Source of the DNA: Jimgerdemannia flammicorona
Taxonomy: Eukaryota
DNA length: 35,758 nt
Direction of reading: 5' to 3'
Assembly: GCA_003990765.1 (NCBI GenBank)
Contig: RBNJ01000241.1
Location: 1-35,758, forward strand
Under the pieces are notes generated by a model, which was given only the letters and a program-made list of their open reading frames with translations, ran no database searches and had not been told where the DNA came from. Position numbers and translations under genes: made by a program. This document shows, one piece after another, positions 3,645 through 32,995 of the stretch; within the stretch, counting starts at the first letter, position 1; the number at the start of each line of letters is the position of its first letter.

Positions 3645-3645
<1 letters not shown>

Positions 3646-12150: not shown

Positions 12151-13319
12151 TGTGACGAGCAGTATAACCATACCACTGAAAGATAAATTAGCCACATACC
12201 ATATCCAGTGCACTAGGCAACCAAGACTGCTTTACTGCGCCAACCTGTATAATTAGCCAGAGATACCAGAAACAGTATGTTTACCTGTATATACTGAACC
12301 AGTACACCATACTGGTCCAGTACACTGTACTATCCAGGAACACTTGTCATAGATAGTCATCTATAATTAGCCATATAGCAACCAGGTAGCAACCACAACT
12401 ATATAAAATACACCAGAGACAAGAGTGAATAAACCTTAGTCTAAAAAGTCAAAGAAAAGCAGAAAGCTTCCTTTTTCACTCTGGTCCACTTTCTGATACA
12501 AAGATTGGTATACTTGCCAGACTAAGCCAGAAGAGAACAAGTCCAAAAAGTTCAAAAACAAAAGATAAGTCTGCCTACCATACTTTGAGAGGAACTTCAA
12601 AGCCACTACTAGGAGATTGTGAGCTTACTTTCCCTACTCTAGTTCACTTTCTGATACAAAGAGCAAGTTCTAGAGTATTTGCTACCTAAGTTTAAGGAAG
12701 AACTTTGCCACCATTTTCAAGAGAAATCTATTATATTTTAGTCTACTTGCTAGATAAGTCTGAAGAATCTAAGAATCTACCTCTTATCACAAAACCAGTC
12801 TTCTGATACATATAACTTTGCAGTAGAGCCAGTCCATCTGATATAACTCTATGCAAATGAAGCCAGTCTTGACATAACTTTACCAAGAGAAGAATCTAAG
12901 TTATTATTCAAGAAGTCTACTATTCTCAGAGAGTCCACTTTCAGAAACCTTGCCATAAGCCAATCTATCTGATACAACTTCACAGTAGAGCTAGTCTATC
13001 TGATATAACCCCATGCAAATGAAGCCAGTCTTTGATATAACTTTGCCAAGAATCTGTCATCTGAGTTATTTCTCAGAGAGTCTACCAATTCAGAAAAAAT
13101 CTACATTATCTACTATTTTCAAGTTATCTGAGTTATCTGAGTTATCAAGTTATCTACTATTTCCAGAGAAGTCTACTAATTTAGGAGAATCTATACCAAA
13201 ACTGAGTTATCTAAATTATCTGCCAAATCAAGCTATCTATTAACTGCTTATTAAGGAATCTACTGAATCTACTAAGATCATCATACAGAAATAACATACT
13301 TTTGAAGATCATTATGACA
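12151..13319 (+). mobile_element. Old solo LTR related to the LTRs of the Gypsy element at 14540
   Basis: TGT...ACA ends; flanks ATAC (12147-12150) and ATAT (13320-13323) form a 4-bp TSD with one C>T. Colinear blocks are shared with the 14540 LTR (taattagcc-agataccaga...gtttacctgt; gagtgaataaacc; ctctggtccactttc; catacttttgaa). No PBS-gag follows. Confidence 0.75.
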
Positions 13320-13323
13320 ATAT

Positions 13324-14539
13324 TTGGAAGTTACTGGAGATTGAGTGGTAACTCTGGTCAGATTATTAGTATCTTCTAGAGTATGGGAGATTTGGGGAAT
13401 ATAGAGAGGGGTCCAGATATTGGTACTTAAATTCTGCTCTACTAGATAACTCTTTACTATAAGATACTTAAGTAATAGACATTAGGTCTAAGGTTCTTAC
13501 TTAGAGAGAGAGAGGGCTCACTATTAGTGATTAATAATAAATACTAAAGTCTAATACTCAGCAAAAAGACTGAGAGGGTGAGGAGTGCTCAGTGAAGAGA
13601 GTGTATACAGTGGGCCTTGCATAGAGGTGGGCTGGTCTATTAGAGACTTAGAATATAAAGAATTAGAGAGTGTGGTAGATCTGACTAGAGGTGAAGAAAC
13701 TGCAATATATTCTGTGAGTAGAGAAGAGTGTGTAGGTATAGAGTATGGCAGTCAGACTATAGTAACAGAAACTAGAAGATGGAGAGACTGACAGTATTTC
13801 TGTTAAGACTGTTGTAGACTAGGAGAGTATATTAGTACTAAGATGGAGTATTGGATGAGGAGGGTATAATGGTGGTAGAGATTCAGAATATCTTAGAATA
13901 GCTAAGTTGATAGTAAAAGTTACTAAGAGTGAGAAGAAGAAAGGTAAGAATATATAGACCATTGAGTGCTATCTGGAGGACTGATATCTAGATCTAGTAG
14001 AGGGGCTGAGAGAATTAAAAGACCTGATGAAAGAAGAGGAGATTCTCAAGATCTTAGTGAGAGACAGTTTTAGGATGACTCTTATTGAGGGCAGACTACT
14101 ATATATGTATGGAACTTCTGAAAATAAATAATAGGGGTAGAGATAGTTTTGGAGGAGCTAAGGCTGATATATAATGAGATTATAAATTCTAGAGAGTAGA
14201 TAAGAGACCAATACCTGGGCCTAGTGATACTATTCTTTAAGAATAAGAGAAGGAGAGAGAAGTGAAAGAATTAACAATTAACATACTTCTAGATATAGAT
14301 CAAAAATTGATCACAAAGGTTATTATTATCCAGTTGTAGTATATCTTATAGAGTACTGAGAGAGAAGAAATAGAGCTTTATTAGAGGTCAGTTAATTCAG
14401 AATGAGATGGTCTGAATCTATAGTATCATTAAAGAGACTAGAACTGTAGATATAGATAGATGGCTGGTTTTTTTTAACTAGGAGAAGATATGTATATGAC
14501 TGAGTACAGAGGGTGTAGTTAGATGAAATACTAAAGTAT
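13324..14539 (+). mobile_element. Old hypermutated L1/Tx1-like LINE, left part (end of APE endonuclease to start of RT)
   Basis: Decayed translations align with the young LINE ORF2: EIEW*LWSDY (vs EVQWCPWSDH), RYWYLNSALL (vs RWRLNVALL), LLDIDQKLI (vs LLNVDRKLV), FN*EK (vs LDQEK). Confidence 0.8.
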
Positions 14540-14702
14540 TGTAATAGACCAAAACATACCACTTGAATTATAACTTAGCCAGATGACATGAACAATTAGT
14601 ATACTTACTTAGTATGATGTAACTTCCAGTATATCATAGTTACTCATATCCACCACACTTATATGTAATTAGCCAAGATACCAGATCAGGATTGTTTACC
14701 TG

Positions 14703-14775
14703 TGTCCTGAGGACACACTCATGTCCTGTGGACACACTTATGTCCTGCAGACACACTCATGTCCTGTGGACACAC
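14703..14775 (+). repeat. Four 19-bp tandem units in U3, each with a TGTCC-N3-GGACA dyad (same array at 29617-29689)
   Basis: tgtcctg(ag/tg/ca)gacacactca with period 19 (starts 14703, 14722, 14741, 14760). Confidence 0.9.
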
Positions 14776-14859
14776 CTGTACCTAGAGGACACACCCAAAC
14801 ATTACTGGAGATAGCAAATCTATAGTTAGCCACATAGTAACCAGATAGCAACCAACTTG

Positions 14860-14890
14860 TATAAATTACCCCAGAGAGAGAGTGAATAAA
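14860..14890 (+). promoter_or_regulatory. Putative LTR TATA box (14860-14865) and poly(A) signal AATAAA (14885-14890)
   Basis: TATAAA and AATAAA are conserved with similar spacing in both LTRs and in the diverged solo LTR (~12400-12433). Confidence 0.55.
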
Positions 14891-16062
14891 CCTCAGTCCG
14901 AATTGAAGTGCAAACCAAAGAAGCCTCTAAAGATTGAGCAATTGGTCCCTTTATTCCTACTCTGGTCCACTTTCCAATACAAAGATTAATTGGTTTGCTT
15001 GCCAGATAAGCCTGAAGATTTGCTGCCTAAGTTTAAGAAGAACTTCGCCACCTTTTGAGTAACCCACCACTAAAGGAATAAGCCACCATTTCCAAGTTAT
15101 CCTCCACCTTCCATAGAAAGCTGCCTTGCTTAAGCCAGTTTCCAATGCAACTTCACAGTGGAGCCAGTCTATGACATAACCCCATACAAACAAAGCCAGT
15201 CTTTAATGTAACTTTGCCAAGAGACCCTTTTCCAGTTGAAGCCATTGTTTTCGAGTTATCCATATTCCCAGTCGAAGCCACTGATTCAGGAAGAATCTGC
15301 ACCATCGTATTCCCAGTTGAAGCCACCAATTCAGGAAGAATCTATGCCATCCGAGTTATTTCCTAAAAGCCCGCCGATTCAGGAGAATCCGCATCATCTG
15401 CCATTTTTGAGTTATCTGCCACATTCCCAGAAGAACCCCGCTGATTTAGGAAGAATCCACATTACCCGAGTTACCCAAGTTATTAAATTATCCACCTCCT
15501 GTGACATTCAAGTTATTCGTCATTCCCAGTGAGCCTGAGAAGAATCCACCACCAGCATTATTCCTAGTTATTCGAATTATCCGCATCATCTGAGCTATTA
15601 TTCCCAGTAAGGAGAACCTATGCCATACATTCCCAGTGAGCCAAATCGAGCTATCTGCCAGAAATTGCATACTTTTGGGACTGTCACACTACACAGAGAT
15701 CATCATGCAGAAATCACATAAGGAGAACTGCTAAATTGTCAGACCGTCACACACAAAGGGATCATCATACTACATAAAGATCATTGCACCAAGACCATCA
15801 TCCAGAAATCACATACTTTTGAAAATTACCTCACTACACAAAATTGTACCATTCCCAGTTGACCCAAGAAGGAGAGATGTAAGTCGCCGCTACACCCAGA
15901 GAACAGTCCCAATAAGGAAATCACTTGTAGATATCTAGCTTTGACTATTATACCACTAAACACCAAGGACCTCAGGAATCTTAGAAGTAACTGGGGGCTC
16001 AAGCCAAACTACATTAACCTCCAACCTTGTAATTTGCCTCCATTGAGCCGGCACATTACATT

Positions 16063-16080
16063 TGGGGGCTCAACTGGGAA
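16063..16080 (+). promoter_or_regulatory. Primer binding site, tRNA-Pro type
   Basis: TGGGGGCTCAACTGGGAA begins 2 nt after the LTR and resembles the tRNA-Pro PBS TGGGGGCTCGTCCGGGAT. Two of the four differences are CpG-type transitions. Confidence 0.8.
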
Positions 16081-16099
16081 TATTTTAAAATCAACATGA

Positions 16100-18103
16100 C
16101 TTTTCAACTCACAAGAACCTATAGTCAAACTGGATACATTTGATACAACACCAACCTCTGCCACTACAGGAGAACCAGTCATCACTAGTATTTGGACAGG
16201 AAGAGAAGTAATCACCTCAAGACTTGCCAACTACCCAGCATCAGAAGGATCCCAATCAGAAGCAGGAGGCAGTACAGCCCGAAATCCCCAATCAGATCAA
16301 TCAGACAATACAGGCAGCCCTGCTAGAGATTTTGGAGAACTCACACAAGAACTAGAAGACCTTAGCACACAGACTCAACATTTTACAGCCAGACACCCCA
16401 CACCAGTCCCACCAATCTCACCAATAGAACCCCTACCACAACCTCTTGCAGAACCAGAAGTAGCTCCTACAAGAATACCTAGGCCTATTCCACCTCACCC
16501 AAGGACCAGAACACCATCTTCAAGATACCCAAGTACCCCCATCTCTAGTGACAGTTCAGAAAGTGAATCAGAATTAGAATCCGAACCTGAATCAGAATCA
16601 GAAGAAAGTGATGACAAAATGGCCACCTCATTGCCAACCTTTGCAGGATACCCAGAGGAGGACCCCAGAGAATTCCTTGATGGAATTGAAGAAATTGCAG
16701 CCTTGAGAAATCTCTCAGATGAAAGAAAAATCGCCATTTACAAAGCTCAGCTCAGAGAACCAGCCAGAGGAATTTTTCATCAAACAGCAAACAACCAAGA
16801 TTCAGAACTAGCAAGACAGATACAAGCAGCAATGTCTGATGAACTAGAATATGAGGCCATGGTCTACTGGCTCATTGAAAAGTATACAGGAAACGAAACC
16901 CACCACAAGGCTCAAGAATCTATCATGAGAATGAAGATGAATCTTGGAGAATCACCCAGAGCCTTCTTCATAAGAATCCAGAAGAGAATGCATACTACTA
17001 GGTTCAATGCCACCAACCAGGACATCATTGGACCAATGACCTTCATGAATGGAATTCCCCCAAACATTGCTCAATATGTCCACACTCTAGATATCAGAAG
17101 GTCTGAAGAGCAAGTAGATGCAGCCCAAGGATTCTTTGATGTCAGACAAGGAACTACTTGGAGTGACTATGATAGAAAAGAAGATAAGGAAGACATTCTG
17201 GTCAAAGCCCTACAAGGACTCCTTCAGGGACAAGAAAGATCTGAGGAAAGAAGGCCAGCCAAGGAAGGAAAGAAGGACAGAAGTGAAATCCAAGACCTCA
17301 GCTCCAAGATAGACTGATTGGTCAGACAGATTGAAAAACTCACCACATGTGAAAATTGGGACTACCAAAACAACAGAGGGTACCCACCACAGAGGAGCCA
17401 AGGTTATCCACCAAGAGATAATAGGAATTACCAGTAAGAAGAAAGAAGGTACTCTGTCTGAGACAGAGCCCAAGTCCAATGCTTCCACTGTGGACAATTC
17501 AGATACTATACTACTAAATATGACAACAAAAGAAGTGACCAAAGGGACTCAGAACTACCAAACCAAAGGAATGACACTCAGTACAAGAAGACTGAAGCCC
17601 ATCCTGTTGAAGATTTCGAGGAAGCAAGCAACAGTGAAGACTACAGTGACCTAGACTTGTATCCTACCAAGATTACCACCTGAAAGACAGTCTACCCAGC
17701 AGAAAAAAGAAAGAGACCTGTAGGAAGGCCATCCAGGAATATCAGCAGAAGAATCATCAAAGAAGAAGATGAAGAACATGAGGAGGAACAAGTTGAAACA
17801 CCCCCCCAAACCCCCTCACCTTTTGTCCCTAAGACAAATGAGTTGCCACCAGAAGATGAAGAAATGGAACAAGAAGAGTGGGAACCTGCTGCTCCAAAGC
17901 CTAAGAAGAAGTACACTCCGAAGACCATGCCTAGAGATATTTATAATGAAGCCTGGCAGAAGATTCAAGAAGCCAAGATGGAAGTCCCTCTCCTGCAGTT
18001 CTTGTAACTGACACCAGCTGGAGTCTGAAACAAATTGCTGAGAACTACCAGGTCTAGCACTGGCCAAGTTCCAATCCCACAGCAAGAACCAGCCTCCATC
18101 TCT
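16100..18103 (+). pseudogene. gag: Gypsy gag (capsid-like domain, decayed CCHC zinc knuckle, linker)
   Basis: One frame is open 16100-17317 (LPTFAGYPEEDPREFLDGIEE..., MNLGESPRAF) and continues through point-mutation stops. The knuckle reads CFHCGQFRYYTTKY at 17480-17521 (ancestrally about CFHCGQFGHYATKC). Confidence 0.85.
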
Positions 18104-18268
18104 TTTTTTTTTTTTTTTTTTTTATAGTCGCTTGGACTCCTTTATTCCACTAGTCTAGAAGAGAACACTATCCATGTATCTCTACAATTACTGTTAAAAC
18201 AAGAATGAACCCAACCCACAGCTATTCATAATAATACAAAGAAGGGCCATTCAGCCCACCCCTTCTTT

Positions 18269-21200
18269 TCACCTCACCCCCTTCTCACCGAGTACAAGGT
18301 GTTCCTGACTTCTCTGAACAATGTCTAACACCTTCTTCATGGCCCCCAACTGGTGCCTTTTCCCCTGATACCACCACTCTTGCACCACTTCCAAGAGTAA
18401 CCCCTTCCACCGCTCCACCAATTCTCCAACCCCCATCCAGGGATCCCTCTCAAACACCCATCACCAGTGCACCGCCATCAGTACCCAGATGCCGATAATC
18501 CGACCCAGGCCTCCCCAGATGTCCCCAATCTCTCCCACCAGGTGATGCTTGATCACTCAACAAGTGGGGCCCCCTGCCCACTCACTCTCCTCCCCCCAAT
18601 AACCCTCCAATGTCTGCCAAAACCCTTCAACCCCTGGACAGGCTGCCAGAATATGCTCCGGCGTCTGCACTACTCCCCCATCCAGCTCACAACACCACTC
18701 ACATTCCTTTACACCATCTTCCACCATCCACCCTATCCTGTACCCTAGCATGACGTTCCTCTGCAGAAATCGCCACCATACCACCCAGAACTTGGGTGGG
18801 GCAATCTTGAGTAGAGAGATCCCCCAGCCCCAAACCCGACCCCACTCCCATTCTTCTCCAAACCCAGCCTTCTGCCAACCAACCGGCCACCTCTCAAGTG
18901 GACCCGTCCGGATCCACTCCATCACCCCTGACAAAGAGTATTCTACCAATGGGTGGCCGCCAATACGAATCACACCAAGTTGCCACCATTGTCAATCTGG
19001 GTCCTCCTCTTCTTTGCCAGGTTCTGGGCCCATGAGACCCATTGCCAGCTAAGCTTCTACAATACCCCACCAAAATCCCCTATAACACAGCCTGCTAACT
19101 CTTCCAACCTGGAGCAAACCTCACATATCCTTCTGAACCTCGCTCCGGGAGCAGAACCAAACTTCCCAGTTGTCCATAGCCAGTTTGCTCCAGCCCTCCC
19201 CTCCTAATTCCGCCATCCGATAACCCCACCAGCCTCGGAGCACCTTTAGCCGCCTTCTGAAGTCCACCAACTCCAGACCGCCATCTGCCCTCACCATCAC
19301 CATAATTTCCCAGCTAATCTGCGATCTCCTTCCCTGCTACAGCCATCCTTCGACCACCTTCTTCAGCTTTTGAACCACCCATCCCAGAAAGTCCAGATGG
19401 TACCCCAAGTACCACAGCTTCGGTAACCAATATACATTCAAAACTACAATTCTCCCAACCAAGGAGAAGCCCCTTCCAGACCAGCCCACCAAGGCATTCT
19501 CCCACTTCTGTATCATTCCACACCACCACTCTTTCGGCAGCACTGTCCCATAAACTGAGAACCAGATGCCCAGATACTGAACTGCTTCCCCAGGTCTAAC
19601 CAATTGTCCAAAATGTCCAAGCTCCCCCAACCCAGCTCCAAGCTCCATAGTCTCGCACTTGCCCCAGTTCAGCTTCACTCCAGCCAGCGTCTCATACTGT
19701 CCTACCCCTTCCTGTAAGCTTGCCACATCTTCCACACTGCCTAACCCTACTACCATATCATCTGCAAAAGCCCCTAACTTCCAGACCACCTCCCCCATTT
19801 TCAATCCAGTAAGCCTCTCCTTCAACCATGCCAACAAGGGCTCCAGAGATAAAATGTAAAGCAGGGGTGAGAGAGGATCTCCCTGTGGCACACCTTGCCC
19901 TAAGAGGAACTCTGGGCCACTCCACCCATTCATCAACACTGCAGCCCAGCAACCTCGCACCAGACCCATCAGCTTTCAAGCCTCCTTCAGACCAAACCCA
20001 ACCTTCTGTAGAACTGCCTCCAAGTAGTTCCACCGCACCCTGTCGTAAGCCTTCTCCTGATCCAAAAACACCATCCTTCCATCTACTTGCCAGCTTCGAC
20101 AACCTTCCAAAACATTCTGCACCCATGCTGTGCTGTCTCTAATCTGCCTCCCCTTTACAAACCCTTGCTGTTCATCGCCCACTATTTGGCCAATCCATTG
20201 TTGCATTCTCCCTGCCAGAATCATGGAGACCAACTTCCTATCTACATTCAGTAACATTATGGGTCTCCAATTTCGCCACACGCGTCTGTCCCCTTTCTCC
20301 TTATAGAGCAGAGAGACTAGCCCTAAGGAGCCATTGCCAATCCAGCAGCCTTCCCCCAGTGTAAAGTTTGCCATTTCCACAAGCCATTCCCCAAGCTCAG
20401 TTTGAAACTCCATCCAGAACTCCCAAGGCAGTCCATCCTCCCCTGGCGATGAACCAGTCTGCGCCTTCCTCAGAACCTCTAACACTTCTTCGAGGGACAC
20501 CCTACCCATTACTGCCCTACCAATTGCCAGCTCTGCCACCACTGGTCAGCTGCTGACCAAATTGTTATTGTCCTCCAGTGCTGCCTCTCCCTCTGCCAGC
20601 CCTCCATCATCCTGCCATAGGGTGCACCATCGATCAGAAACCTCCTCTAGCATGTCTGTGATATCGGTCACCTCAGTACCATCCTCCCGCAATACGGAAG
20701 CCCAGCTGTGCCTCACCCTTCTGGCCTTCAAGATGCCAGACAAGTACTTGGTGGGTCGCTCTCCTTCTTCCAACCACTTGGCTCGCAATCTTGCCAGCAA
20801 CCCATCCACCACCCTATCTTTGGCAGCCTTCAATTCTGACCACAACTCTACTACCTCCTTGATCAACAGGGAGTGCCATTCCCCTGAGGTAATCTCTCCC
20901 TCTAAAAGTCTCAACTGCCAGCGCAGCCCCTGCTCTACTCTCCTCTCCCTATCCTTCTACTCCCTTCCCGCTACCTCTCCTACATCATGCCAATATGCAC
21001 CTGCCAGATGTTTAAATTTCCCCCACCACTGTGCTATCGATTGGCCACTATCCTTCCACTGTGCCACTTCCTGTCTTGCAATTTCCACAAACTGGTTCTG
21101 CTCCACCTGTCTCTTGAGAAGTGCCACATTAAGTCGCCATCTGCCTCCACCACCACTGGCCACCTGGAATCTCTCACACACCTCTACACCCCAGTGATCC

Positions 21201-21886
21201 GACCAGGGACACCACTGTACCTCAGTTGAATCCACAACATTACCCCAGCATTCTGCCACCAGAATCCAGTCAATCCTTGTACCAACCAAATCTTCACCAA
21301 CTGGATGCCACCTAGTAAATAGCCCTGACTTCTCACCTTGACATTATTGTACTCCATCAACCAATCCCATTTCCTTCTCAACTTGAAGCCATCGTGAGAG
21401 CCCTGTAGAGACCACCATGCCGACTCCACCATCAGACCTATCTAATGTCCTGTCACGAACTATGTTGAAGTCCCCTCCAAAAATGTCCAGCCTAATCTCC
21501 TCCCTGCTTTCCCAATCCAGCCAACCTTCCACCCATTGGTTTCGCTCTCTGCCAACCGCTGGCAGATATGCTGAGCCAACTGTAAGCCCATCGCCTGCTC
21601 CTCCTTTCAGTCTCCCCCAGACCAATCTATCACTATACCTCTCGACCTCCTTCAGCTCTCCTCTCCCCAAGCCAACCAGAATACCCACCTGCTCATTCCA
21701 CCCTGTGCTACCATACCATTCCTTGCTCCACTCCTCATAATCTTGCTCCCCATAGGCCCGAACGTCCTGCAGAAATATCAAGTCATACCTCCTGTTCTTC
21801 AGCCACCGAAACAAATGCCTCCGCTTCACTCCATCACGTAAACCATTGATATTTAGTGATAATATATGTAGACTGTTCATTATCAT
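18269..21886 (-). pseudogene. LINE ORF2: APE endonuclease, reverse transcriptase and C-terminal CCHC
   Basis: SLNINGL, LIFLQD, GGDFN, RIDWIL, WSDH; SSPGEDGLP, NWRPIMLLNVD, DQEKAYDRV, QGDPLSPLLY, AFADD, YLG; CEWC...EHILAAC. Several stops and frameshifts; 3' end approximate. Confidence 0.93.
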
Positions 21887-21898
21887 GAATATAAATAT

Positions 21899-23742
21899 TT
21901 AAATTTCCACTAGATTCGCCGCCACCTTCTCAGCCCTACCGCAAATAATAGCCTTCCATTTCTCGCAGATACCCCTCCAGATGCGTGCTCCATTCACCCC
22001 ATTGCAAAAGACCTCCACTCGCTCTGATGCCACCTTCCTGATTTCAGCCATACGGTCCTCATCAATCTCATATCCTTCATCATCCAGAAGTGCAACCACC
22101 ATTGCTGTCACCAACTTCGGCCCCTGCAGTGCTACATTGAGAAACCCTTCCCAGGCCTCCTGCGATCCATTAAACACATCCACTTCCTTGATATCCTCCT
22201 CCGCAAGTTCCTCAAGCACTGCCTGATACCAGTCATCAGCCGTCATCACTATGGGCCCCGGGGTGGCCGGCCTTGGAGTCCTACTCAGCTCCTGCAGCAT
22301 CTCTCTATCTGCCGATACATCGGAAGCCACATCCACCAGATCGTCCTCCTCAGTGCCCTTCTCCAGCCAGACCACTTCGCCCACCTCTGGGTATTCCCAA
22401 TGCACATTTGCTGCTCCCGCCATGCGAACATCCTCCAACTGGGTCTCCGGTACCACCTCAACAACCTCCTCAAAGCCCCCAGTGGTCGCCTCCTCCTTAT
22501 CCACCCACTTCCCTGTCACTGGTGTATGAGTAGAATCCTCCACACCCCCTAGTTGCGAAAGGACACCTCAGCCATCTCCACCTCTTCCATTTGACTCTTG
22601 GCCATCTCTGCTTTTTCCTCCTCCTCCCTTTTCGAGCTCTGGAGAACTGTCTGCAGATGCTCCCAGTTTGCCCTTTGCCACCTCTTCCTCTTCCCATCAG
22701 TCAGAATCCAGATCCAATCCTTGGCAAACTCCTTCCACTTCTGCTTCTGCAGTTCCTTCACAGCCTCTCTCTCCTCTAGGGCAACTAGCAATTCCTTCTC
22801 CTCCTGTTCCGAGCCCTTCCTTCTCCACACTTTGCACTCCTGCCCTCCGATGCGAACTACTTCTGGCCAGTCCCTCTCTTGCCCCATGGCCTCCTTGCCT
22901 TCCAGCCTCACTATTACCTTGCAGTTGCCATTCCTCAACTTGGTCCCCTCCCAGAACATAAACCCGAAGTCCACTATCTCGCCAAATGCCCCCAGTGCCT
23001 CTGCCACCATTCCTTTAGTCTCCTGTCTCCCCAATGTTGGCAGCCCTTCAATTACCAGTTGCACTGCCCACGGGTCCCACCTTAGGCACCTCGCCATGCC
23101 AACCTTGATGCTCTTGACAACCAGCCCTTTCTCCAAGGCCTTCACCATCTCCTCCTCCTCAACGAATCCTATCTCAACTGCCTCAGCTGATGGAATGAAC
23201 TTCAGCGATTCTGCCCCTGCAATCTCCTCTCCAACTAGCCACAAGACCTCCCTCGCAGACATCCCCAGCCCCAAAAAATTCGCTGATATGGCCCATGTCG
23301 ATACTGATTTGTGGAAGAAGGGATGCACCACCAGTTCACCAGATCCAGCTGCCATTGTCGCCTTCTTCTTGTTCTCCGATTCTCCAGCAGTCACCCCAGC
23401 CACTGGCCCAGCCCCAGGAAAACCAGTCCCAGCCACACCACTTCCGGACCCCTGGCCCTGAGCAGGCACCTGACCAGTCACCTGACCCGTCACCTGGCTG
23501 GTCACCTGACCCCTACCCCTGTCAACACTACGCCCCCCCTGCCCAACCCCCATGGGCCTAGTGGCTGCCCTCCTGCCCCCCATCACTGTGTGCCAACTCT
23601 CAACACCAGCCTGCCTCCCCTGACCACCCACTCCTCCTGCCCCTGCACCTGCTCCAACTGTCACCGCAAAACTCTTGGGGAGACCCAGACCAGGCCTCCT
23701 TCTCTCCAAATGCTCAGAGCTTGATGAACCCTGGGTCGCCAT
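21899..23742 (-). pseudogene. LINE ORF1 (putative nucleic-acid-binding protein) with one frameshift near 22560
   Basis: 397-aa and 214-aa ORFs just upstream of ORF2 (12-nt spacer); RRM-like segment (LVIEGLP...ALGAFGEIVD); coiled-coil and acidic region; GQVT repeats. Confidence 0.75.
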
Positions 23743-23935
23743 CTGACAAAAACTCTACCAAAATAGATGAGACTTGTTGTATATTGTAGCTAGACTCCTG
23801 CCACACCTTGCACACCAGAATAGATGACAGAAAAACTTGAAAACGTATTGCTTGTTGCGAAAAGATGTCCGAGTGGCTTAGCTTGCTCTGAATAATTCGA
23901 GCAAAAGGAGTCCGGGGCTCCCAGCCTCCATCTCT

Positions 23936-24330
23936 GTCCAAGCAGCTGAAAGACATATCAGCACCTACTTACATGGAGACATTGGAGGACAAAAAGAAAA
24001 AATCCTCATAGATACAGGAGCAGCTGTCTGTGTCATTGCCAAATGATTCTTGGACACCCTCTAATGGCCCATTGATGGACCATCTAACCTCAGCATCATA
24101 GTAGCAGATGGAGCCCGAACTCAACCCCTTGGAGAAGTATAAAATATCACCATCTCCCTTGGACACATTTAGTTCTCCATCCCCAAAGCTGTTATCACTG
24201 AAGCTGTCATCTATGATATGATTCTTGGCACTAACTGGATGAAGGAAATGAATACAGTTGTTGATATCAGCCAACAAGTACTCAAGTTTGACTACCGAGG
24301 CAAGAAGTACAGAGTTAAGATGACCAGCTA
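23936..24330 (+). pseudogene. Retropepsin-type aspartic protease of the Gypsy element
   Basis: ILIDTGAAVCVI (DTG at 24011), IIVADG, YDMILGTNWM; same frame as gag. Confidence 0.92.
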
Positions 24331-24451
24331 TGAGCAATCAAAGAAGAAAAAGAAGGTCACTATTCAGGAAGAATATGTCAGCAGTGAAGAATCCACCACA
24401 GAAGAAGAGGAAGAATCTGAAGATAGAAATGATCCCAGACTCAATCTCTGA

Positions 24452-25620
24452 ATCAATCTGGTGGATGACAGACCAGAAGACAATGTGTGGGCCAAAAACA
24501 CTATCCCTATCACTATTGGAGCCATTGCAGGAGAAGCCAAAGGATGCCCTACATACCTCAAGAGACACAAGTGTCCCAAGCACTCCTCCAAGATTATGGG
24601 AACAAGGAAATCACCTGGTACAGCCTGCCCAGAGTGCAGAAGGAAGAAGAAGAAATGCAGACATGTCCCAGAAACATGGCTGCAGAAGTATAAGCAATTT
24701 GGGGTCAAGAATCATCCAAGGAAGAAGAAACTTCCAACCAAGAAGTTCCTGAACAAGAAGGACCTAATGAAGAAGAAGTCTCTGAACTCATCCCCTGGGA
24801 TGACCCTCACTGGACACCACCTGAAGACAATGACCCCTGGAATACAGAGGAAGGACCCAGTACCATCACCATTATCCCCAAGAAAGAAACCCACCAAGAG
24901 AAAGCTTTCTGGCTAGGAAGATGTCCACATCAAATGATCTTCCACTCTCTCTGAGACTACTGCTATCAGTGTCATCTATTGGACCAACAAGAAAGACAGA
25001 GACCCCAGAGACCAGAACCCCCAACTACTCTTGCACAGTCTACCACCTTTCAAGAGGTCACTATAAGGTTACAAAGTCGATTTAGGGGACAAGGCTTCTT
25101 TACCCAGACAGAAATATACCCCTTGTCTACCCTTTCCCCAACCTATAACCAAGATGGGTACTGATTCCTAAGACAACAAGAGATAAATAGCCGGGAACAT
25201 CATTTCCGAGCAATGGGGTATTGCAACCATGGGAGACACCCTGATTGCCGAGACTGTAGACATCAGAAGATTCACCTCAGTTATGATGTTGTAGTGCATA
25301 CCTTGAAGAAAGGAGATAACTGAAGCAAGATCCGAAAAAGTCAGATTCGAAAAAGCCAGACCAAGAAGCCCGGAAAAAGAATTCTCAAGATCTACAATTT
25401 GGGAGAAGATATCCTAGCTCTCATCAGACATGCAACCCACCAAGGATGGGCAGAAGATACCACCAACTTCATGGAAGCCCTTGACCCTACAGGAAGGAGG
25501 GGAATCAATTACCTCCAAGACCCCTCCACTGGAGCCAGATGGCCACACCTCAACCTTAGAGCTTGGAGACTTTCTGCCAGTGGAGCTTCAGCCTTAGGAA
25601 AGCCCGAACTCAGCAAGGAT
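24452..25620 (+). other. Accessory polyprotein region with three Cys/His clusters and acidic tracts
   Basis: CPTYLKRHKCPKH...ACPECRRKKKKCRH (24545-24664); CPHQMIFHSL*DYCYQCH (24922-24975); CNHGRHPDCRDC (25222-25257). Frame change near 24680. Confidence 0.6.
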
Positions 25621-25626
25621 ATTGCC

Positions 25627-26031
25627 CAGTATGCCCTACTGCACCCCAAGGCCAAACCCCCGACCAAAGCCCACCCAGAAGATGTAGGATATGATCTTCA
25701 CAGCCTGGAGGACGAATCCATCAAGTCTGGAAAAACCTTCATGGTCAGAACCGGATTAGCCATGCAGCCACCTCAAGGAACTTATATTCAACTGACCTCA
25801 AGGTCCAGACTTGCCAGACAAGGAATAACTGTAGAAGGAGGGACCATTGACCCTGGATATACAGATGAAATCAAGGTTATCCTACACAACAGTAGTGCAG
25901 AATGGCACTGAATCATTAGAGAACAGAAGATTGCCCAAGCAGTCTTCATGAAGGTCAAGACCCCACAGTTACAGGAAGTCTCTGAACTAACTGAAGGAAC
26001 AAGACAAGCCAAGGGATTTGGAAGTTCAGAT
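25627..26031 (+). pseudogene. dut: Trimeric dUTPase domain within the Gypsy pol
   Basis: All five motifs are present: VGYDL, SRSRLA, GGTIDPGYTDEI, KIAQAV, RQAKGFGSSD. One TGA at 25909. Confidence 0.93.
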
Positions 26032-26458
26032 GGGAAAGAGATACATCTCCTTCAAGTCAACCACCTCAAGAAGAATGTTCCCCAGCAAGTATACCAGCAA
26101 CCAGTCAGACTACACAAGAATCTCATCCTGGAGTCTGGAGAACAAACCACCTTCGAAATATTTGCACCACCCGACCCCAGGAACCTTTTATTTGAACCCA
26201 AGGAAGATATCCCACACCTGGACATAGAGGGACACACATTCCCTGATAAAATGAACCCAGTACACTCCCAAGCAACCAACCAAAGTTGGGAGATCATCAT
26301 CCTGCCAAAAGGAACCATCATAGGACATCTGGTGCCTTTTCTCAACCGAACTCATAGGGAAGTTTATGAACTAAACCTATCAGGAAATGGCAAAAGGTCC
26401 CAGAGGCCCCTCTGCGACCCAGGAGACAGTGAAGCCTTCTACCAACATTGGAGAATAA

Positions 26459-27840
26459 TTGACACCCCAACAACAGCAACAACTAGTAGAACTTCTCAAC
26501 AAATATCAAGATATCTTCACCACTGATTATGGCAACCTGCCATACAACCCATCATATCACCACAGCATAAATACAGGAAGTGCAACACCCATCTGGCAGA
26601 AACCCTATAGAATACCCCATCACTTGAAGACATTCAAAAAAGAGCACATCCAAGAACTTTTAGACAATGGAGTCATCCGACCCTCTACCAGCCCCTGGGC
26701 CAGCCCTATACTTATTGTACCAAAGAAAGGAGGATGGAGACTCTGTGTGGATTACAGAAAACTCAATGCAGTCACTGAAAAGGATGCTTATCCTTTGCCC
26801 AGAATCAATGACCTTTTGGACCAGCTACAAGATACCAGATACTTCAGCAGTATGGACCTCTTCACAGGATTCCATGAGATCCCCATGGACCCCAAGGATG
26901 TTCAAAAGACAGCCTTCCTTGCTCTAGGAAAACTGTTTGAATACCTCCGAATGCCCTTCAGACTCTGCAATGCACCCCCCACCTTTCAGAGGATGATGAA
27001 TTCAGTCTATGCCCCCTTGATCCACCACTGTCTGATTGTATACATGGATGATTCCAACATCTATTCAGCAAATTTTGAAGAACACCTGCACCATCTAGAG
27101 GAATTTTTCAAGCTCACCCACAAGAATTACTTGAGACTGAATGCAAAGAAATGCTACTTTGGAAAACAGAAACTTGAATTTCTAGGATTCATGGTTTCAA
27201 AAGAAGGAACTCATGCAGACCCAAAGAAAACCGAGAAGATCAACAATTGGCCAGTACCCAAGACTCCAAAAGAAACACTATCATTCTTGATGCTAGTATT
27301 CTACTACAGAAGGTTTATCAAAGATTTTGCTCAAATCGCTGCCCCTATCTGAATCCTTCTCAAGGAAGGAGTGCCATTCAAATGGACAGAATCACAGGAA
27401 AAAGCCTTCAGGGAACTCAAGAACTGCATGACTACAGCACCAATCCTTGTGTGCCCTAATCTACAGAAGCCATTCATCTTGTATACAGATGCTTCTAAAG
27501 ATGGCCTTGGGCAGTACTGTCCCAAGAAGGACCTGATCAACAGCATCATGTGATAGCTTATGCAAGCAGAGCTACTAACTAGCAGCAGATGAACTATGGT
27601 AGCACCAAATTGGAATGCCTTGCAGTCATATGGGCAGTTACCCTGTTCAAGCATTACCTTATTGGAAAAAGGTTCACCCTGATCACAGACCATACAGCCC
27701 TCAAATAGCTATTCAACTATAAGAAACCTGCCAGAATCCTAGCCCAGTGGATTCTTATCCTTCAGGATTACAAAATCACCATCATTCACAAAGTAGGGAA
27801 AGCCCACAACAATGTTGATGTACTTTCCCACCAGTCCCAA
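26459..27840 (+). pseudogene. pol: Gypsy reverse transcriptase and RNase H
   Basis: SPWASPILIVPKK, WRLCVDYRKLN, YPLPRI, YMDD (27041-27052), FLGF, FILYTDAS, ELEC-like segment, LITDH. Stops and frameshifts. Confidence 0.97.
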
Positions 27841-27899
27841 TGAATCAGAGGAAGGGTGTCCTGAGGAACCACACCCTAAAGGGAGCTCCTCAGACTATC

Positions 27900-28919
27900 A
27901 AAGCACAAGAAGATCTCATCCGAAAAGAACATCAGAAAGCCCACCAAGGACAGACAAGCATAGAAGACAGAATTCAAAAACAATACCAACATTGGCCCCA
28001 CCTCAGAGCTCAAGTACAGGACATCATTCAGAAATATGATACCTGCCAGAAGTACTAAGGAAAGAAGAACTATCAAGCCCCTCTGCAACCAATTCCCCCA
28101 CCCACTCACATCTTTCAAAGATGGGGAGTAGATGTAATTAGACCTCTACCAGTTATACCAAGAAGAAACAAATATATCCTTGTATTTGTAGAACATCTGA
28201 CCAAGTGGCCTGAGGCTTTCCCAATGGAAATTGCAGATGCCTTAACTATTGTAGGCCTCCTCCATGGACTCACACTCAGATATGGACCCCCAGAAGAACT
28301 TATCTCTGACCAAGGCACAGAATTCATCAATAATATAATCACAAGTTATGCTTGAATTCACAAGATCCACCTCAAAAGGACCACATCATACCACCCCCAG
28401 ACCAATGGCATGACAGAAAGAATGAATCAGACTATCAAGAAAGGACTTGCTCGAGTCAACCCTACTAATTGAGACTTCTGCTTACCTGAGATCCTATGGG
28501 AAATTCAGAATACCCCTGCTATATCCACCAAACAAAAGCCATTCGAAATGATGTTTGCTAAGAGAATCAGAACTGCTGACCATGAGAATCTCAGAGACCT
28601 CCTCAAGAAGGCAGAACAGTTATGAAATCAAGCCCAAGGACAGATTATCAAAGCCCAGAAAAGACAAAAAAAGTACTATAACCAAAAACAGAAGGATCAG
28701 GAGATCAAGATTGGAGATCAAGTCCTAGTTTGGAGAAGCATGATTGAGACAAACTTTGCTGCCAAACTAGAACCAAAATGGGAAGGACCTTATCTTGTAT
28801 ATAACATCAGAGGAACCAGCATCTATTTAAGAAGCATAGATGGACAAAACCTAAGAACACCAGTACACATCAATTGCCTCAAGATATACTTCTTCTCACA
28901 CTATGAATCAGAGAATTAA
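27900..28919 (+). pseudogene. Gypsy integrase (HHCC, DDE, GPY/F; no chromodomain seen)
   Basis: HQKAHQG...YDTCQK, WGVDVI, LISDQGTEF, YHPQTNGMTERMN, KWEGPY, VHINCLKIY; stop TAA at 28917-28919. Confidence 0.93.
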
Positions 28920-29418
28920 CAACCACCTCCAAAATCTTGTTCTCAGTTCCCTCCAAGCCCTACCAGTTCCCCTGCCTCAGTTTTGGGAACCCAATGGAAC
29001 ATATCTTCAGAAAATCTGAGTTCATCAAGAGAACCTCACTTTGGCCAAGAGACTACTCCAGATCCACCAGCTGTAGGCATATTATGCAATTGGAGAATAG
29101 TTGTAGAATCTTCCTCTTCCAGAACTAGCCTATGTCTGAAACACCACTGGCCTAAACAGAAGGAATACTACTGCTGCAGACAGACTAGACACAATAATAT
29201 ATAAACAAAATCCTTCTGCCTTAATCCAGGCCCAGATTTTCCTGAATAATCTCCAAAGGATGATACTGCCCACCTACCTCAGCATTATTCACCAAGTGGA
29301 GATTCTATTTCCTGAGGAAGAAGAAGAGCCCCTGGAATGGAGTGACTATAGCTCAGATAATAATGATGGAATAGGTATAGATGCAGAAGCTGCTTATGCC
29401 TATTGGGATGATGACTGA
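28903..29418 (+). pseudogene. Candidate third ORF (~171 aa) between integrase and the 3' LTR
   Basis: The ATG overlaps the end of pol. A single frame with 5 internal stops; the last 92 codons are stop-free and end in an acidic tail (EEEEEPLEWSDYSSD...YAYWDDD*) just before the PPT region. Confidence 0.55.
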
Positions 29419-29457
29419 AGAATAGTCTGGGACAGACTACCCTTCAGTGGGGGCTGA
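29414..29457 (+). promoter_or_regulatory. Pre-LTR hairpin and atypical polypurine tract (AGTGGGGGCTGA)
   Basis: ACTGAAG-aa-TAGTCTG-gga-CAGACTA-cc-CTTCAGT inverted repeat, then a G5 run abutting the 3' LTR. Confidence 0.65.
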
Positions 29458-30987
29458 TGTAATAGACCAAAATATACCACTTGAATTATAACTTAGCCAG
29501 ATGACATGATCAATTAGTATACTTACTCAGTATGATGTGACTTCCAGTATATCATAGTTACTCATGCCTGCCATACTTATAATTAGCCAAGATACCAGAT
29601 CAGGATTGTTTACCTGTGTCCTGAGGACACACTCATGTCCTGCAGACACACTCATGTCCTGCAGACACACTCATGTCCTGTGGACACACCTGTACTTAGA
29701 GGATACACCCAAACATTACTGGAGATAGCAAATCTATAGTTAGCCACATAGTAACCAGATAGCAACCAACTTGTATAAATTACCCCAGAGATGAGAGTGA
29801 ATAAACCTCAGTCTGAATTGAAGTGCAAACCAAAGAAGCCTCTAAATATTGAGCAATTGGTCCTCTTATTCTCACTCCAGTCTACTTTCCAATACAAAGA
29901 TTGATTGGTTTGCTTGCCAGATAAGCCTGAAGATTTGCCACCTAAGTTCAAGAAGAACTTCACCACCTTTTGAGTAACCTGCCACTTAAGGAATAAGCTG
30001 CCATTTCCAAGTTATCCTCCACCTTCCAAAGAAAGCTGCCTTGCTCAAGCTAGTTTCTAATGCAACTTTGCAGTGGAGCCAGTCTACGATGTTACCCCAT
30101 GCAAATAAAGCCAGTCTTTAACGCAACTTTGCCAAGAGACCCTTTCCCAGTTGAAGCCATCATTTCCAAGTTATCTGCATTCTCAGTCGAAGCTGCCAAT
30201 TCAGGAAGAATTCACACCAACATATTTCCAGTTAAAGCCACTGATTCAGGAAGAATCCATGCCATCCAAGTTATTTCCTAGAAGCCTGCCAATTTAGGAG
30301 AATCCATGTCATCTGCCATTTTCAAGTTATCCACCACATACCCTGCTGATTCAGGAAGAATCTGCATTATCTGAGTTACCCGAGTTATTGAATTATCCAC
30401 CTCCCACAACATCTGAGTTATTCATCATTCCTAGTGAGCCTGAGAAGAATCTGCTACCAGCATTATTCTCAGTTATTTGAATTATCCACGTCATTCAAGC
30501 TATTATTCCCAGTAAGGAGAACCTATGCCATACATTCCCAGTGAGCTAAATCAAGCTATCCACCAGAAATCACATACTTTTGGGACCATCATGCTACATA
30601 GAGATCGTCATATAGAAATTGCATAAGGAGAACCGCTAAATTGCCAGACCATCATGCACAAGGAGATCATCATGCTATACAAAGATCATCACACCAAGAC
30701 CATCACTCAGAAATTGCATACTTTTGGAAATTACCTCACTATACAAAATTGTACCATTCCCAGTTGACCCAAGAAGGAGAGATACAAGTTGCCGCTACAC
30801 CTAGAGAACAGTCCCAATAAGGAAACCACTCACAGATATCCAGCTTTGACTATTATACCACTAAACACCAAGGACCTCAGAAATTTTAAAACATTTTGTT
30901 GCTTTTTGACAAAGTAACTGGGGGCTCAAGCTAAACTACATCAACCCCCAACCTTGTAATTTGCCTCCATTGAGCTGGCATGTTACA
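29458..30987 (+). repeat. 3' LTR (1530 bp)
   Basis: Direct repeat of 14540-16060; differences are mostly transitions plus a few indels (e.g. ~22 extra nt near 30892-30913). Confidence 0.96.
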
Positions 30988-30991
30988 GTAT

Positions 30992-32794
30992 ATTAAACTT
31001 TTGACAGTCTTTGATCAGTCTGTTGGAGGGGAGTAAAGTAACTATCTTAGTTAATAGACACTAGAGTGTTATTCTCTTTAGATAGAGAGATGCTACAGAG
31101 TGACCCACTGTTATCTATTCTCTATATTCTCTCTTTAGAACTCTTACTGAACCAGATTAGATACAGAGTGAGTAGGTTGATGATACTAGGAGTGAATTGA
31201 AAGATTGGAGTATTTATAAATAACATAGTGATTGGGCTGGGCTCTGTAGAGAATATAACTATATTGAAAGAAGCTGTGGAGTAATATGAGAAGTACTCTG
31301 GGACTAAACTCAACTGATACAAATGTGAGACCTTAGTACTCAGTAATAGAGTAGTGAGAGGGAATATAATTGGAATAATTATCTCAATAAGAGAGATAGT
31401 CTGATATCTGAAAATTTACTTCTTAGTATATAACTTATTATTATTATCTAGGATATAGTAAGTGGAAGCTAGTAGAGTGGAAGAATGCTCTCCTGGATCG
31501 AGAAAGCTAACATATCTTCTTGAAAGAAAGAATTATAATACTGAATATATACTAGCTATCTAAGCTATGATATCTAAAATATTACTTAGACTTTTCTACA
31601 TAAGAAGTGAAGAGACTTCTAAAGAAAGCCAGGTTTTGAATTTGGGCCAGCAATAAAGTCAGGTAGACTGAAATATATTGATACTACTAGTAGGGCAGAG
31701 AGAACTTGGCCTTATTGACTTCACAAAGTATTTATACTATTTGAGAGTATGGTGATTAAAATGGATCTATGAGTTAGAGAGATAGAGATAGATACTCCTT
31801 TTATAATAGGTTTGGGAGGAGTGATTCTTGCTCAGGAGAACTTCTGATAACTTACTATTTTTAGTAGTACTGAAGAGTAGTTATTAAATATATTATATAT
31901 AGAAAATTTTGATAAGAGATAGTAGAATGAGCCCATTAGATAGAGATCTACTGATATAATAATAAAAAGAGCAGACTGGAGATCTGAGATATGGCAATAG
32001 AATCCTCTTCTTTTAGTGAGCTTTCTGATAGTAAATTTTAGCTAGAGGATAGTATAAAGTATTAGTATAGATAGAGAAGAGATCTGTGGCCAGAGAGTTA
32101 GTAGAGAGTAGATATTAGAGAGATATTGAACTAGGTAAGAGTTTGGTTATAGAGTAAGATAATGTCAAAATAGCTCTCTCTCAAATTCTGAATTATATAG
32201 TTATAGCTCCTATATCAGAATATAATGCTGAACTTTCAGTTAGGACATTTGGCAAAAGAGAGAGTATTTAACTGTGAGGAGTACTTTAATATTAGGTATG
32301 AGAGTAAAGTAAAACAGATCTCAGAACATTGGCTGAGTGAGTGTCTGGTAATGGAAGATTTCTGATTAACAATTAAGAGTTAGTTGAAGTAGTGAGATGT
32401 TCTCTAGTTGTAGCTGATGAGAAAGATTAGTAATAAATAGATCTTTCTGAACTTTAGCTATATGTCTTTGAGGATAGTCAGAGATTATTGCTAAGTATAA
32501 GAGTAGTAAGGAGAGTAACTATTGTTGAAGTTACTGAATGAGTGGTGGGCTGAATGGAGACCTAGAGAGGGTCTATACTATAGGCTAATGAAAAAGATAT
32601 ATATATAAAGTGAAAGAAGAATTAGAGTAATTAAGGAGATAGTTATCTTCAATAAGAAAGAAATTGAGAGTGGTCTCTCTAAAGAAGTTGAGTAGAGAGT
32701 AAGACTTTGATATTATATTATATAGGTATAGATTGGTATAATAATAAATTTAAGAGTCTAAGCAATTAAAAAAATAAAATAAAATAAAATAAAA
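30992..32794 (+). mobile_element. Old hypermutated LINE, right part (RT to 3' tail)
   Basis: QSDPLLSILYILSLELLL (vs QGDPLSPLLYILSLEPLL), VFINNIVIGLGSVE (vs AFADDMVVGLGSVE), YEKYSGTKLN*YKCE (vs YETLAGVKLNWGKCE). The 3' end aataaa...gagtctaagcaatt plus an A-rich (AAAAT)n tail matches the young LINE end aataaaggagtccaagcgact-poly(A). Confidence 0.88.
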
Positions 32795-32995
32795 GGAGTT
32801 CTCTTAGAGAACAGATGTTCTCTTAGGGTACAGATATTCTCTCAGAGTACAGGTATACTCTGGAGATATGAAATTTATCCTAATTTAGTATGTCAACTAT
32901 TTATGCAATAAGTGATATAAGGGGTAACTCTGAGAGATAACTATGCTGGGTGTTTTGCACATCATCTGGCTATACTATAATATTTGCTTGTCACA
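32795..32995 (-). mobile_element. 5' ~200 bp of another related LTR in reverse orientation
   Basis: The minus strand starts TGTGACAAGCA (cf. TGTGACGAGCA at 12151), contains tagccagatga like the Gypsy LTR, and has ~19-bp tandem units (ctgtaccctaagaga-like). Confidence 0.55.

Follow-up and report, generated by a model that had tools for sequence, protein, structure and literature searches.

A dUTPase between protease (PR) and reverse transcriptase (RT), extra zinc (Zn) knuckles and additional open reading frames (ORFs) are already known, from the descriptions cited here, in Ty3/Gypsy long terminal repeat (LTR) retrotransposons of fungi, rotifers and planarians. For Gypsy elements of the fungus Postia placenta, the dUTPase is described at the N-terminus of Pol, at its C-terminus or between PR and RT, and it was apparently captured independently several times in fungal Gypsy elements; the same paper cites earlier reports of dUTPase in Gypsy elements of Phanerochaete chrysosporium and Tuber and itself describes additional ORFs and the non-chromoviral Ylt1-like and SN_1006 fungal lineages (PMC2864245). 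The rotifer elements Juno, Vesta and TelKA are described with a dUTPase between PR and RT, diverse ORF3s and no chromodomain, Juno having an extra Zn knuckle (PMC5408684), and giant Gypsy elements of planarians with the dUTPase at the same position, between PR and RT (PMC6431247). In a bioRxiv preprint on Entomophthora, dUTPase is reported to be enriched alongside families of retroviral protease. In the open-access full-text literature, we found no paper joining dUTPase, retrotransposon and early-diverging fungi. Here we describe a dUTPase-bearing Gypsy element of Jimgerdemannia flammicorona, at positions 14540-30987 of contig RBNJ01000241.1 (assembly GCA_003990765.1); the window is the whole stretch analysed, 35,758 nucleotides of the forward strand. 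An earlier note on this DNA, made from the letters alone, had taken typical fungal chromoviruses to be free of such cargo; for fungal Gypsy elements at large this premise does not hold, given the dUTPase, also between PR and RT, and the additional ORFs published for fungi in 2008-2010 (PMC2864245).

The element is very probably a decayed copy, no longer mobile, from a Ty3/Gypsy (Metaviridae) family of LTR retrotransposons that lack a chromodomain and whose intact members encode four ORFs. Its outer features, including the target-site duplication (TSD) and a stretch like a primer-binding site (PBS), are as follows.

14536-14539, forward strand: left TSD, GTAT, matching 30988-30991.
14540-30987, forward strand: whole Ty3/Gypsy LTR retrotransposon, from its LTRs, TSD and domain order.
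14540-16060, forward strand: 5' LTR, 1521 bp, a direct repeat with TGTAA...TTACA ends.
14703-14794, forward strand: 19-bp tandem repeat in the 5' LTR, 4.8 copies, from a repeat scan.
15263-15351, forward strand: 45-bp repeat in the 5' LTR, 2 copies, from a repeat scan.
16063-16080, forward strand: PBS-like TGGGGGCTCAACTGGGAA, 2 nt downstream of the 5' LTR.
29445-29457, forward strand: G-rich stretch resembling a polypurine tract, abutting the 3' LTR.
29458-30987, forward strand: 3' LTR, 1530 bp, a direct repeat with TGTAA...TTACA ends.
29617-29689, forward strand: 19-bp tandem repeat in the 3' LTR, 3.8 copies, counterpart of the 5' LTR array.
30988-30991, forward strand: right TSD, GTAT, a 4-bp duplication.

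These features bear out the earlier proposal of a Gypsy element at this place with repeat-rich LTRs of about 1.5 kb, which are direct repeats with internal 19-bp and 45-bp tandem units, and with a 4-bp TSD, GTAT being present on both sides. Ylt1 also has a TSD of 4 bp. The chromodomain, said to be missing, is indeed not found: Pfam PF00385 matched none of 20 window pieces, nor the intact integrase (IN) of a related metagenome locus (L001, below), nor ORF4. The 19-bp unit holds an inverted repeat, TGTCC-N3-GGACA, and the arrays of both LTRs resemble a series of dimeric transcription-factor sites in U3. The tRNA-Pro type given for the PBS-like stretch in the earlier note is a putative assignment, made by resemblance. 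Across the whole window, a tRNA scan found 0 tRNA genes and Rfam gave 0 matches.

Between the LTRs, the stop-to-stop frames of the forward strand follow the order gag, decayed CCHC knuckle, PR, dUTPase, RT, RNase H (RH) and IN. Pfam matches were obtained for dUTPase (E 6e-15), RVT_1 (E 6e-31), Integrase_H2C2 (E 2e-8) and rve (E 1e-7), and no family for gag, the pieces of the PR-dUTPase linker or ORF4. From the end of PR, at about 24450, to the start of the RT ORF at 26459 there are roughly 2 kb of extra sequence, as had been claimed.

This extra sequence is conserved in relatives. An exhaustive HMMER search with 25324-26526 as query (stop read as X, threshold E <= 0.001) found 20,475 dUTPase-like proteins, only three of which (P0121, P0122, P0123) extend into the flanking sequence; of 1.84 billion representatives, no more than 3 protein clusters have the domain that follows the dUTPase. 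Compared with the element across the dUTPase and the domain behind it, P0121 is 80% and P0123 37% identical; for P0122 the figure is 36%, over query residues 46-359. P0122, a metagenome protein of 1179 amino acids (aa) with Pfam zf-CCHC, aspartic protease and dUTPase domains, is 25-37% identical to the element and colinear with it from gag to the end of the post-dUTPase domain. Its residues 1-374 align to window 16931-18091 (E 5e-17), residues 372-582 to 23921-24529 (E 4e-29; 37% identical over the PR part) and residues 587-1142 to 24724-26397 (E 2e-72), the alignment running colinearly across a long interspersed nuclear element (LINE) inserted in the window copy. Both the window and P0122 have an acidic linker after PR and a conserved LDP.G.RG.NY stretch. 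A word-index search with P0122 residues 580-1150 returned P0122 itself and one protein matching the dUTPase alone.

A scan of JGI metagenome contigs with the post-dUTPase alignment yielded a single locus, L001 (4101 bp), which is 78.8% identical to window 25093-29078 over 4011 aligned bases and has a single internal stop, a TGA at 849-851. Counted at codon positions 1/2/3, L001 and the window differ at 69/47/127 sites in the dUTPase and the part preceding it, at 22/17/58 in the post-dUTPase domain, at 65/22/156 in RT-RH, at 28/28/96 in IN and, past the IN stop, at 27/11/36 in ORF4. Because third codon positions bear most of the differences, the accessory parts are under purifying selection like the enzymes. 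Contigs of 'organism A' (two sequencing runs) cover the LTRs and interior parts at 80-99% likeness, and a soil metagenome holds relatives across gag, PR, RT, RH and IN; viral contigs scanned with the RT-RH of L001 gave no relative. The relatives of the lineage that came from protein searches are only unnamed metagenome proteins and one metagenome contig. Absence of the accessory segments elsewhere, which the earlier note had named as grounds against its own reading, was looked for, and the segments are conserved in P0122, L001 and two further proteins, P0279 and P0280; they are not copy-specific.

The RT groups with Ty3/Gypsy, its best matches all being Gypsy-type polyproteins (RVT_1, RT_RNaseH, rve). 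The closest RT among the best 120 matches is 50% identical, and the best relatives, at 38-50%, are from animals, plants and Rhizophagus or are metagenome proteins. The pair made up of the window and L001 (88% identical) stands alone, on a branch of length 1.12, within an unresolved part of a mixture-model tree of 50 RTs, and it is set apart (99*) from the dUTPase-bearing P0275 and P0278. P0064 and P0078 group with Rhizophagus proteins (95*) and not with this pair. A FastTree grouping of the window with P0275, P0278 and plant elements (SH 84) was dropped, the mixture-model tree separating them (99*). The dUTPase-bearing RT groups sit at three places in the tree, in agreement with the account of independent captures in PMC2864245.

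It is possible, if doubtful in its full form, that the family is an undescribed deep Metaviridae lineage of early-diverging fungi, polycistronic with four successive -1-frame ORFs, a frameshift after PR-dUTPase, an ATGA-reinitiated separate integrase, a coupled acidic ORF4, and the dUTPase set in a module with two zinc knuckles and a beta-sandwich. An unlikely but serious alternative is an ordinary member of a described non-chromoviral fungal Gypsy clade (Ylt1-like, SN_1006), with the dUTPase as one more independent capture. As described in PMC2864245, the Ylt1-like and SN_1006 fungal lineages lack a chromodomain, dUTPase positions are varied and additional ORFs occur, and the three separate tree places of dUTPase-bearing groups would suit such an origin as well. 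However, among the 50 RTs, which include the best database matches, no starred clade larger than the window and L001 holds the pair, and both the isolated branch (1.12) and the confinement of the post-dUTPase domain to 3 protein clusters argue against membership. The suggestion of a poorly described lineage thus stands in that there is no close named relative (best RT 50%) and the branch is isolated, but the kind of cargo was already known.

The layout of the ORFs is best read in L001, where the frames step f3, f2, f1, f3, each ORF lying -1 relative to the preceding one. The corresponding features of the window are listed here.

26382-26388, forward strand: AGGAAAT, decayed counterpart of the L001 heptamer GGGAAAC; a 10-bp deletion follows at 26404.
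26459-27843, forward strand, frame 2 up to a 1-bp deletion at 27511 and frame 1 beyond it: ORF2, RT and RNase H, with natural stop TGA at 27841-27843.
27840-28919, forward strand, frame 3: ORF3, integrase (HHCC finger, rve core, GPY module), its ATG overlapping the ORF2 stop as ATGA.

A KGKG..PL stretch past the beta domain that follows the dUTPase is common to P0121, P0122 and P0123, and each of the three ends soon beyond it; since they stop at the same place, the end of ORF1 is conserved. In L001, ORF1 and ORF2 overlap by 73 nt; this overlap holds the sole GGGAAAC of the 4101 bases, phased G GGA AAC in ORF1, and a -1 slip there leads directly into the RT ORF. We lean towards programmed -1 ribosomal frameshifting at GGGAAAC as the route by which ORF2 would be reached, a prediction from the phasing of the heptamer. 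Two points weigh against it: the slippery heptamer is intact in one sequence only (L001) and mutated in the window, and the RNA that follows it gives no better fold than shuffled sequence (z -0.44). A TGA inside the dUTPase of both L001 and the window, which leaves neither with an uninterrupted ORF1, counts against the four-ORF reading as a whole.

In L001 and window alike, a TGA closes the RT-RH frame just a few codons past ..DVLSR/H.., where RNase H ends, and both have the ATGA stop/start overlap at the RH/IN boundary. IN, which ends about 30 residues past the GPY motif, kept a coding substitution pattern afterwards, and for this reason the frame break is a working feature and not a lesion. 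Tentatively, our preferred mechanism is that ORF3 would be started by termination-reinitiation at ATGA; the alternatives are splicing, a subgenomic RNA or a non-canonical shift. This preference is tempered by the fact that reinitiation is proposed by analogy only, splicing or a subgenomic RNA fitting equally well. Inspected by eye, the RH/IN overlap of L001 and of the window shows no canonical slippery site. In the contigs of 'organism A' and of soil, no joint indicates that ORF3 or ORF4 is reached by splicing. None of the open-access papers listed for reinitiation with LTR retrotransposons, taken by title and opening of the abstract, seems to treat an integrase ORF split off in Gypsy elements.

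The RNase H end motif is present in 68 of the best 120 RT matches, and 16 of these 68 end no more than 15 residues after it; proteins ending just after RNase H include the dUTPase-RT fusions P0064 and P0078 and an NCBI protein of Rhizophagus irregularis. In a set of fungal or metagenomic Gypsy elements, translation may commonly stop just behind RNase H, with integrase encoded on its own; the recurrence hints that, in the Gypsy elements of fungi, integrase made as a separate product could be a widespread trait that has been overlooked. It is improbable that the split of pol into RT-RH and IN, and with it the 3' ORF, are fossil frameshifts of a defective master copy. Such an origin would agree with the imperfection of both sequences that display the layout, each having a TGA in the dUTPase, and with the lack of a canonical slippery site by eye at the RH/IN overlap, but IN (28/28/96) and ORF4 (27/11/36) kept their coding pattern after the window and L001 split, and the stop right after RH recurs in related lineages (the 16 of 68 motif-bearing proteins among the best 120 RT matches). 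The layout suggests unusual translational control: a frameshift after PR-dUTPase, by which the ratio of PR and dUTPase to RT would be altered, and an integrase made from its own cistron.

The fourth ORF follows the integrase.

28903-29418, forward strand, frame 1: ORF4, accessory, 171 codons; ATG 14 nt before the IN stop, own stop at 29416-29418, a little ahead of the stretch resembling a polypurine tract.

The extra 3' ORF that the earlier note gave as a candidate is a real conserved ORF and not an env. A word-index search found intact relatives on two other contigs, P0279 (171 aa, ENA) and P0280 (172 aa, JGI), which are 67% and 64% identical to ORF4 over 91% of the query and share its start and its end, with the same start Met and the same YWDDD terminus. 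L001 is open in the ORF4 frame up to the contig end; it has no ATG at the ORF4 start, a point against the four-ORF reading. The homologues are acidic (pI 4.5-4.7), with a net charge of -16 to -18 in the last 40 residues, and have no hydrophobic segment (maximum Kyte-Doolittle 19-residue mean 0.94-1.03). ORF4 matched no Pfam family, and a PDB sequence search with its profile gave a best E of 0.22. It is a clean candidate for a new retroelement accessory protein. ORF3 (27840-27852) and ORF4 (28903-28915) start with nearly the same words, ATGAATCAGAG, both reading MNQR; ATGAATCAGAG may be a start context common to the translation of downstream cistrons.

'Retrovirus-like', as the element had been called, is acceptable in a loose sense only, as there is no env and ORF4 has no hydrophobic segment. 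That it is an endogenous retrovirus or an animal-derived Gypsy element, with a host that is not a fungus, is very improbable. The 4-bp TSD, the resemblance of the PBS-like stretch to the tRNA-Pro type, the many animal proteins among the best 120 RT matches and a weak Pfam match to the C-terminal domain of murine leukaemia virus (MLV) IN (E 0.003, below the cut-off) could be taken that way, but no env is present, ORF4 stays at a maximum Kyte-Doolittle mean of 1.03, the animal RT matches are just 38-50% identical, and a neighbouring intronless ORF of 1224 aa resembles Mucoromycota ion-transport proteins.

The features of ORF1 in the window are the following.

16622-17683, forward strand, frame 2: gag, of uncertain start (the first Met is at 16622), aligning colinearly with residues 1-230 of P0122 (Pfam zf-CCHC).
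17480-17521, forward strand: decayed CCHC knuckle in gag, from sequence.
17705-17737, forward strand: AT-hook-like basic motif KRKRPVGRPSR, between the nucleocapsid knuckle and PR, aligning with GGKRGRPP of P0122.
23936-24450, forward strand, frame 2: aspartic protease (PR), active site LIDTGA at about 24005-24022, from the P0122 alignment.
24922-24972, forward strand: Cys/His motif A, C-x-H-x10-C-x2-C, with identical spacing in P0122, after a conserved WDDP..W stretch.
25222-25272, forward strand: Cys/His motif B, GYC-x-[HC]-x5-11-C-x2-C-x5-H, common to window, L001 and P0122.
25651-26028, forward strand: dUTPase domain, from Pfam PF00692 and the fold of the relative P0123.
26070-26350, forward strand: post-dUTPase beta-sandwich domain of about 90 aa, lineage-specific, from relatives and the P0123 model.

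ORF1 would thus encode a Gag-PR polyprotein, followed by an acidic linker, motifs A and B, a canonical trimeric-type dUTPase and a beta-sandwich of about 90 aa. The gag frame 2 is open from 16100, 174 codons upstream of the first gag Met, and an ATG at 16096 lies one base out of frame; the original start of gag may have been this ATG, with a long Pro/Ser/Glu-rich N-terminal region. An AT-hook has an R-G-R-P core between basic residues. The AT-hook-like motif claimed for the element is present, P0122 reading KRGRPP where the window reads RPVGRPSR, and P0122 has no listed Pfam AT_hook match at E<=0.1.

The dUTPase is the most firmly identified of the accessory parts. Its Pfam match runs across one stop (E 6e-15 and 2e-4; 55.6 bits against a cut-off of 22, relatives scoring 62-113 bits). 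An AlphaFold2 model of P0123 from a 24-row alignment has a mean predicted local distance difference test (pLDDT) score of 81.5, and 92-98 over residues 21-140. Residues 18-150 of the model were compared by VIA-align with 48,161 PDB representatives and matched Mycobacterium tuberculosis dUTPase with Z 18.9 (7pwx; root mean square deviation 2.2, 130 of 134 residues aligned), the human enzyme with Z 18.5, and those of equine infectious anaemia virus (EIAV) and Mason-Pfizer monkey virus (M-PMV) with Z 16.2 and 15.2. L001, P0121, P0122 and P0123 retain every column that does not vary in an alignment of 24 dUTPases, the C-terminal GFGS motif among them; the window reads GYTDEI where L001 and P0121 read GYTGEI (Gly to Asp). 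A TGA stands at the same dUTPase codon in L001 (849-851) and the window (25909-25911), where P0121 has Arg. It may reflect parallel decay at a hypermutable site or common ancestry, a read-through codon being less likely. By analogy with retroviral dUTPases, the enzyme would lower dUTP near the reverse-transcription complex and so spare the cDNA uracilation in non-dividing cells low in dUTPase.

The beta domain, residues 172-257 of the P0123 model (pLDDT 85-97), has a best structure match of Z 5.2, to generic Ig/MSP-like folds. We had considered a degenerate second dUTPase and rejected it (hhalign probability 0.6%, only generic beta-sandwich matches); as modelled, it is a separate domain matching no known family. 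Motifs A and B are probably zinc-binding, judging from ligand spacing in two (A) or three (B) sequences. On the other side, it is only the Cys/His spacing of these 2-3 sequences that points to zinc, and the full-length P0122 model has a mean pLDDT of 43, with 27-46 over residues 600-880, which include the motifs. The motif region had no Pfam match, and P0122 residues 610-880 no usable match in the ESM Atlas. As candidates for the zinc-binding modules of the earlier note, motifs A and B are conserved in relatives; a third Cys/His-rich run, read in frame 2 around 24530-24700, lacks a P0122 counterpart. We rejected this run as a zinc module: P0122 has only 4 residues against about 65 window codons, two frames are open, and the run is doubtful because Arg codons can give Cys and His codons in a CpG-decayed copy. 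The fold check proposed for the accessory segments came out clear for the dUTPase, with generic matches only for the beta domain and pLDDT 27-46 for the Cys/His region. Nothing shows the 'regulatory' toolkit that had been suggested, ORF4 and the Cys/His motifs matching no family.

It is extremely improbable that what lies between PR and RT and behind IN is copy-specific junk (nested fragments, duplications, decayed spacer), a reading refuted everywhere outside 24530-24723. In its favour, the copy has decayed heavily (27 stops) and already hosts one nested insertion, and the roughly 195 nt of 24530-24723 have no P0122 counterpart and are ambiguous in frame. Against it, homology to P0122 is colinear through the whole PR-to-RT interval, third positions are biased against L001 in the pre-dUTPase and post-dUTPase parts and ORF4, and intact ORF4 proteins lie on two other contigs.

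The decay of this copy is extensive. Along the reading path set by the relatives there are 27 in-frame stops (among them 5 in PR, 3 in ORF2, 4 in ORF3, 5 in ORF4, and in the dUTPase the one TGA at 25909). The frame changes between 24529 and 24724, and relative to L001 the window has deletions of 10 bp at 26404 and of 1 bp each at 27511 and 28899; one soil-metagenome contig carries the bases missing at 26404. The LTRs are 89.3% identical over 1507 aligned columns, with 162 differences (156 transitions and 6 transversions), the 5' LTR having been entered as 14540-16062, 2 bases past its end. Most differences are TG-versus-CA pairs, the signature of CpG deamination on either strand, and because this process dominates them, the 10.7% LTR divergence overstates the age of the element. 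The host genes at 1-12000 have an observed/expected CpG ratio of 1.09, compared with 0.34 for the LINE, 0.06-0.30 for the Gypsy element and 0.09 for the AT-rich flank to its left. This CpG-specific decay, restricted to repeats, suggests repeat-targeted cytosine methylation or a process like repeat-induced point mutation (RIP) with CpG preference in the host; hypermutation so confined bears on host genome defence. The copy was probably inactivated by insertion of the LINE just upstream of PR together with methylation-type CpG-to-TpG/CpA decay.

18104-23920, reverse strand: nested non-LTR retrotransposon (LINE), separate from the Gypsy element, with Exo_endo_phos (APE endonuclease), RVT_1 and a poly(A) tail.

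The LINE is about 5.8 kb long, its poly(A) tail appearing as a 20-nt poly(T) on the forward strand, and is flanked by a 15-bp TSD, CCAGCCTCCATCTCT, at 18089-18103 and 23921-23935. It has two large upstream ORFs with no Pfam match, and the forward strand is strongly C-rich in this region (GC skew about -0.45). The flanks of the Gypsy insertion (12000-14539 and 30988-33000) are AT-rich, with 31-37% GC and strong positive GC skew in both, and are probably older decayed repeats that received the element. Farther to the left, the intronless 1224-aa ORF at 4400-8074 has no Pfam match; it is ion-transport-like by language-model features (score 0.94), and its nearest Atlas clusters are mostly Mucoromycota, with the phylum recorded for few members, which points to an early-diverging fungus of this kind as the probable host. 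Ankyrin repeats are found at 1014-1622, and the ankyrin-repeat ORF (1014-1787) overlaps four diverged direct repeats of about 190-200 bp each.

Caulimoviruses, members of the Caulimoviridae, reverse-transcribing relatives of the Metaviridae, translate polycistronic RNA by reinitiation at ATGA overlaps. The four-base ATGA overlap that joins ORFs at the RH/IN boundary is alike, as a mechanistic analogy only, and no homologue of a caulimovirus-type transactivator was found for the window element. In betaretroviruses the dUTPase lies in one ORF with PR, ahead of a -1 frameshift into pol. The dUTPases of M-PMV and EIAV share the fold of ours (Z 15.2 and 16.2), but in contrast to betaretroviruses and non-primate lentiviruses the window element has no env, gag and PR are in one frame, and the RT falls among Ty3/Gypsy.

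Compared by description, the rotifer Juno, Vesta and TelKA are alike in having no chromodomain, a dUTPase between PR and RT, an adjacent extra Zn knuckle (Juno), an ORF3 of varied kind behind pol and, in some of them, a GPY/F module; they differ in their animal host and in that their ORF3s are env-like or encode a GDSL lipase or DEDDy exonuclease (PMC5408684), whereas ORF4 of the window has no Pfam match. The descriptions consulted for the rotifer elements mention no split IN ORF. Among fungal Ty3/Gypsy elements, those of Phanerochaete chrysosporium, Tuber (Tmt1) and PosPlaTy3-5 have a dUTPase, in PosPlaTy3-5 at the PR-RT position, and some have additional ORFs (PMC2864245). The dUTPase tree of that paper is described as drawn from chromodomain-containing elements, the named hosts being all Dikarya, whereas the window element, again compared by description, has no chromodomain. 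Further differences from the elements of PMC2864245, as they are described there, are the 4-bp TSD, the Cys/His motifs and beta-sandwich that flank the dUTPase, and an ORF break after the dUTPase instead of after gag. Set beside all these systems, what is new is the set of modules, the conserved ORF4 and the layout of four -1-stepped ORFs with a separate integrase, as drawn from few sequences and from predicted translation; these conserved and selected extra parts extend the catalogue of 'complex' Metaviridae to early-diverging fungi.

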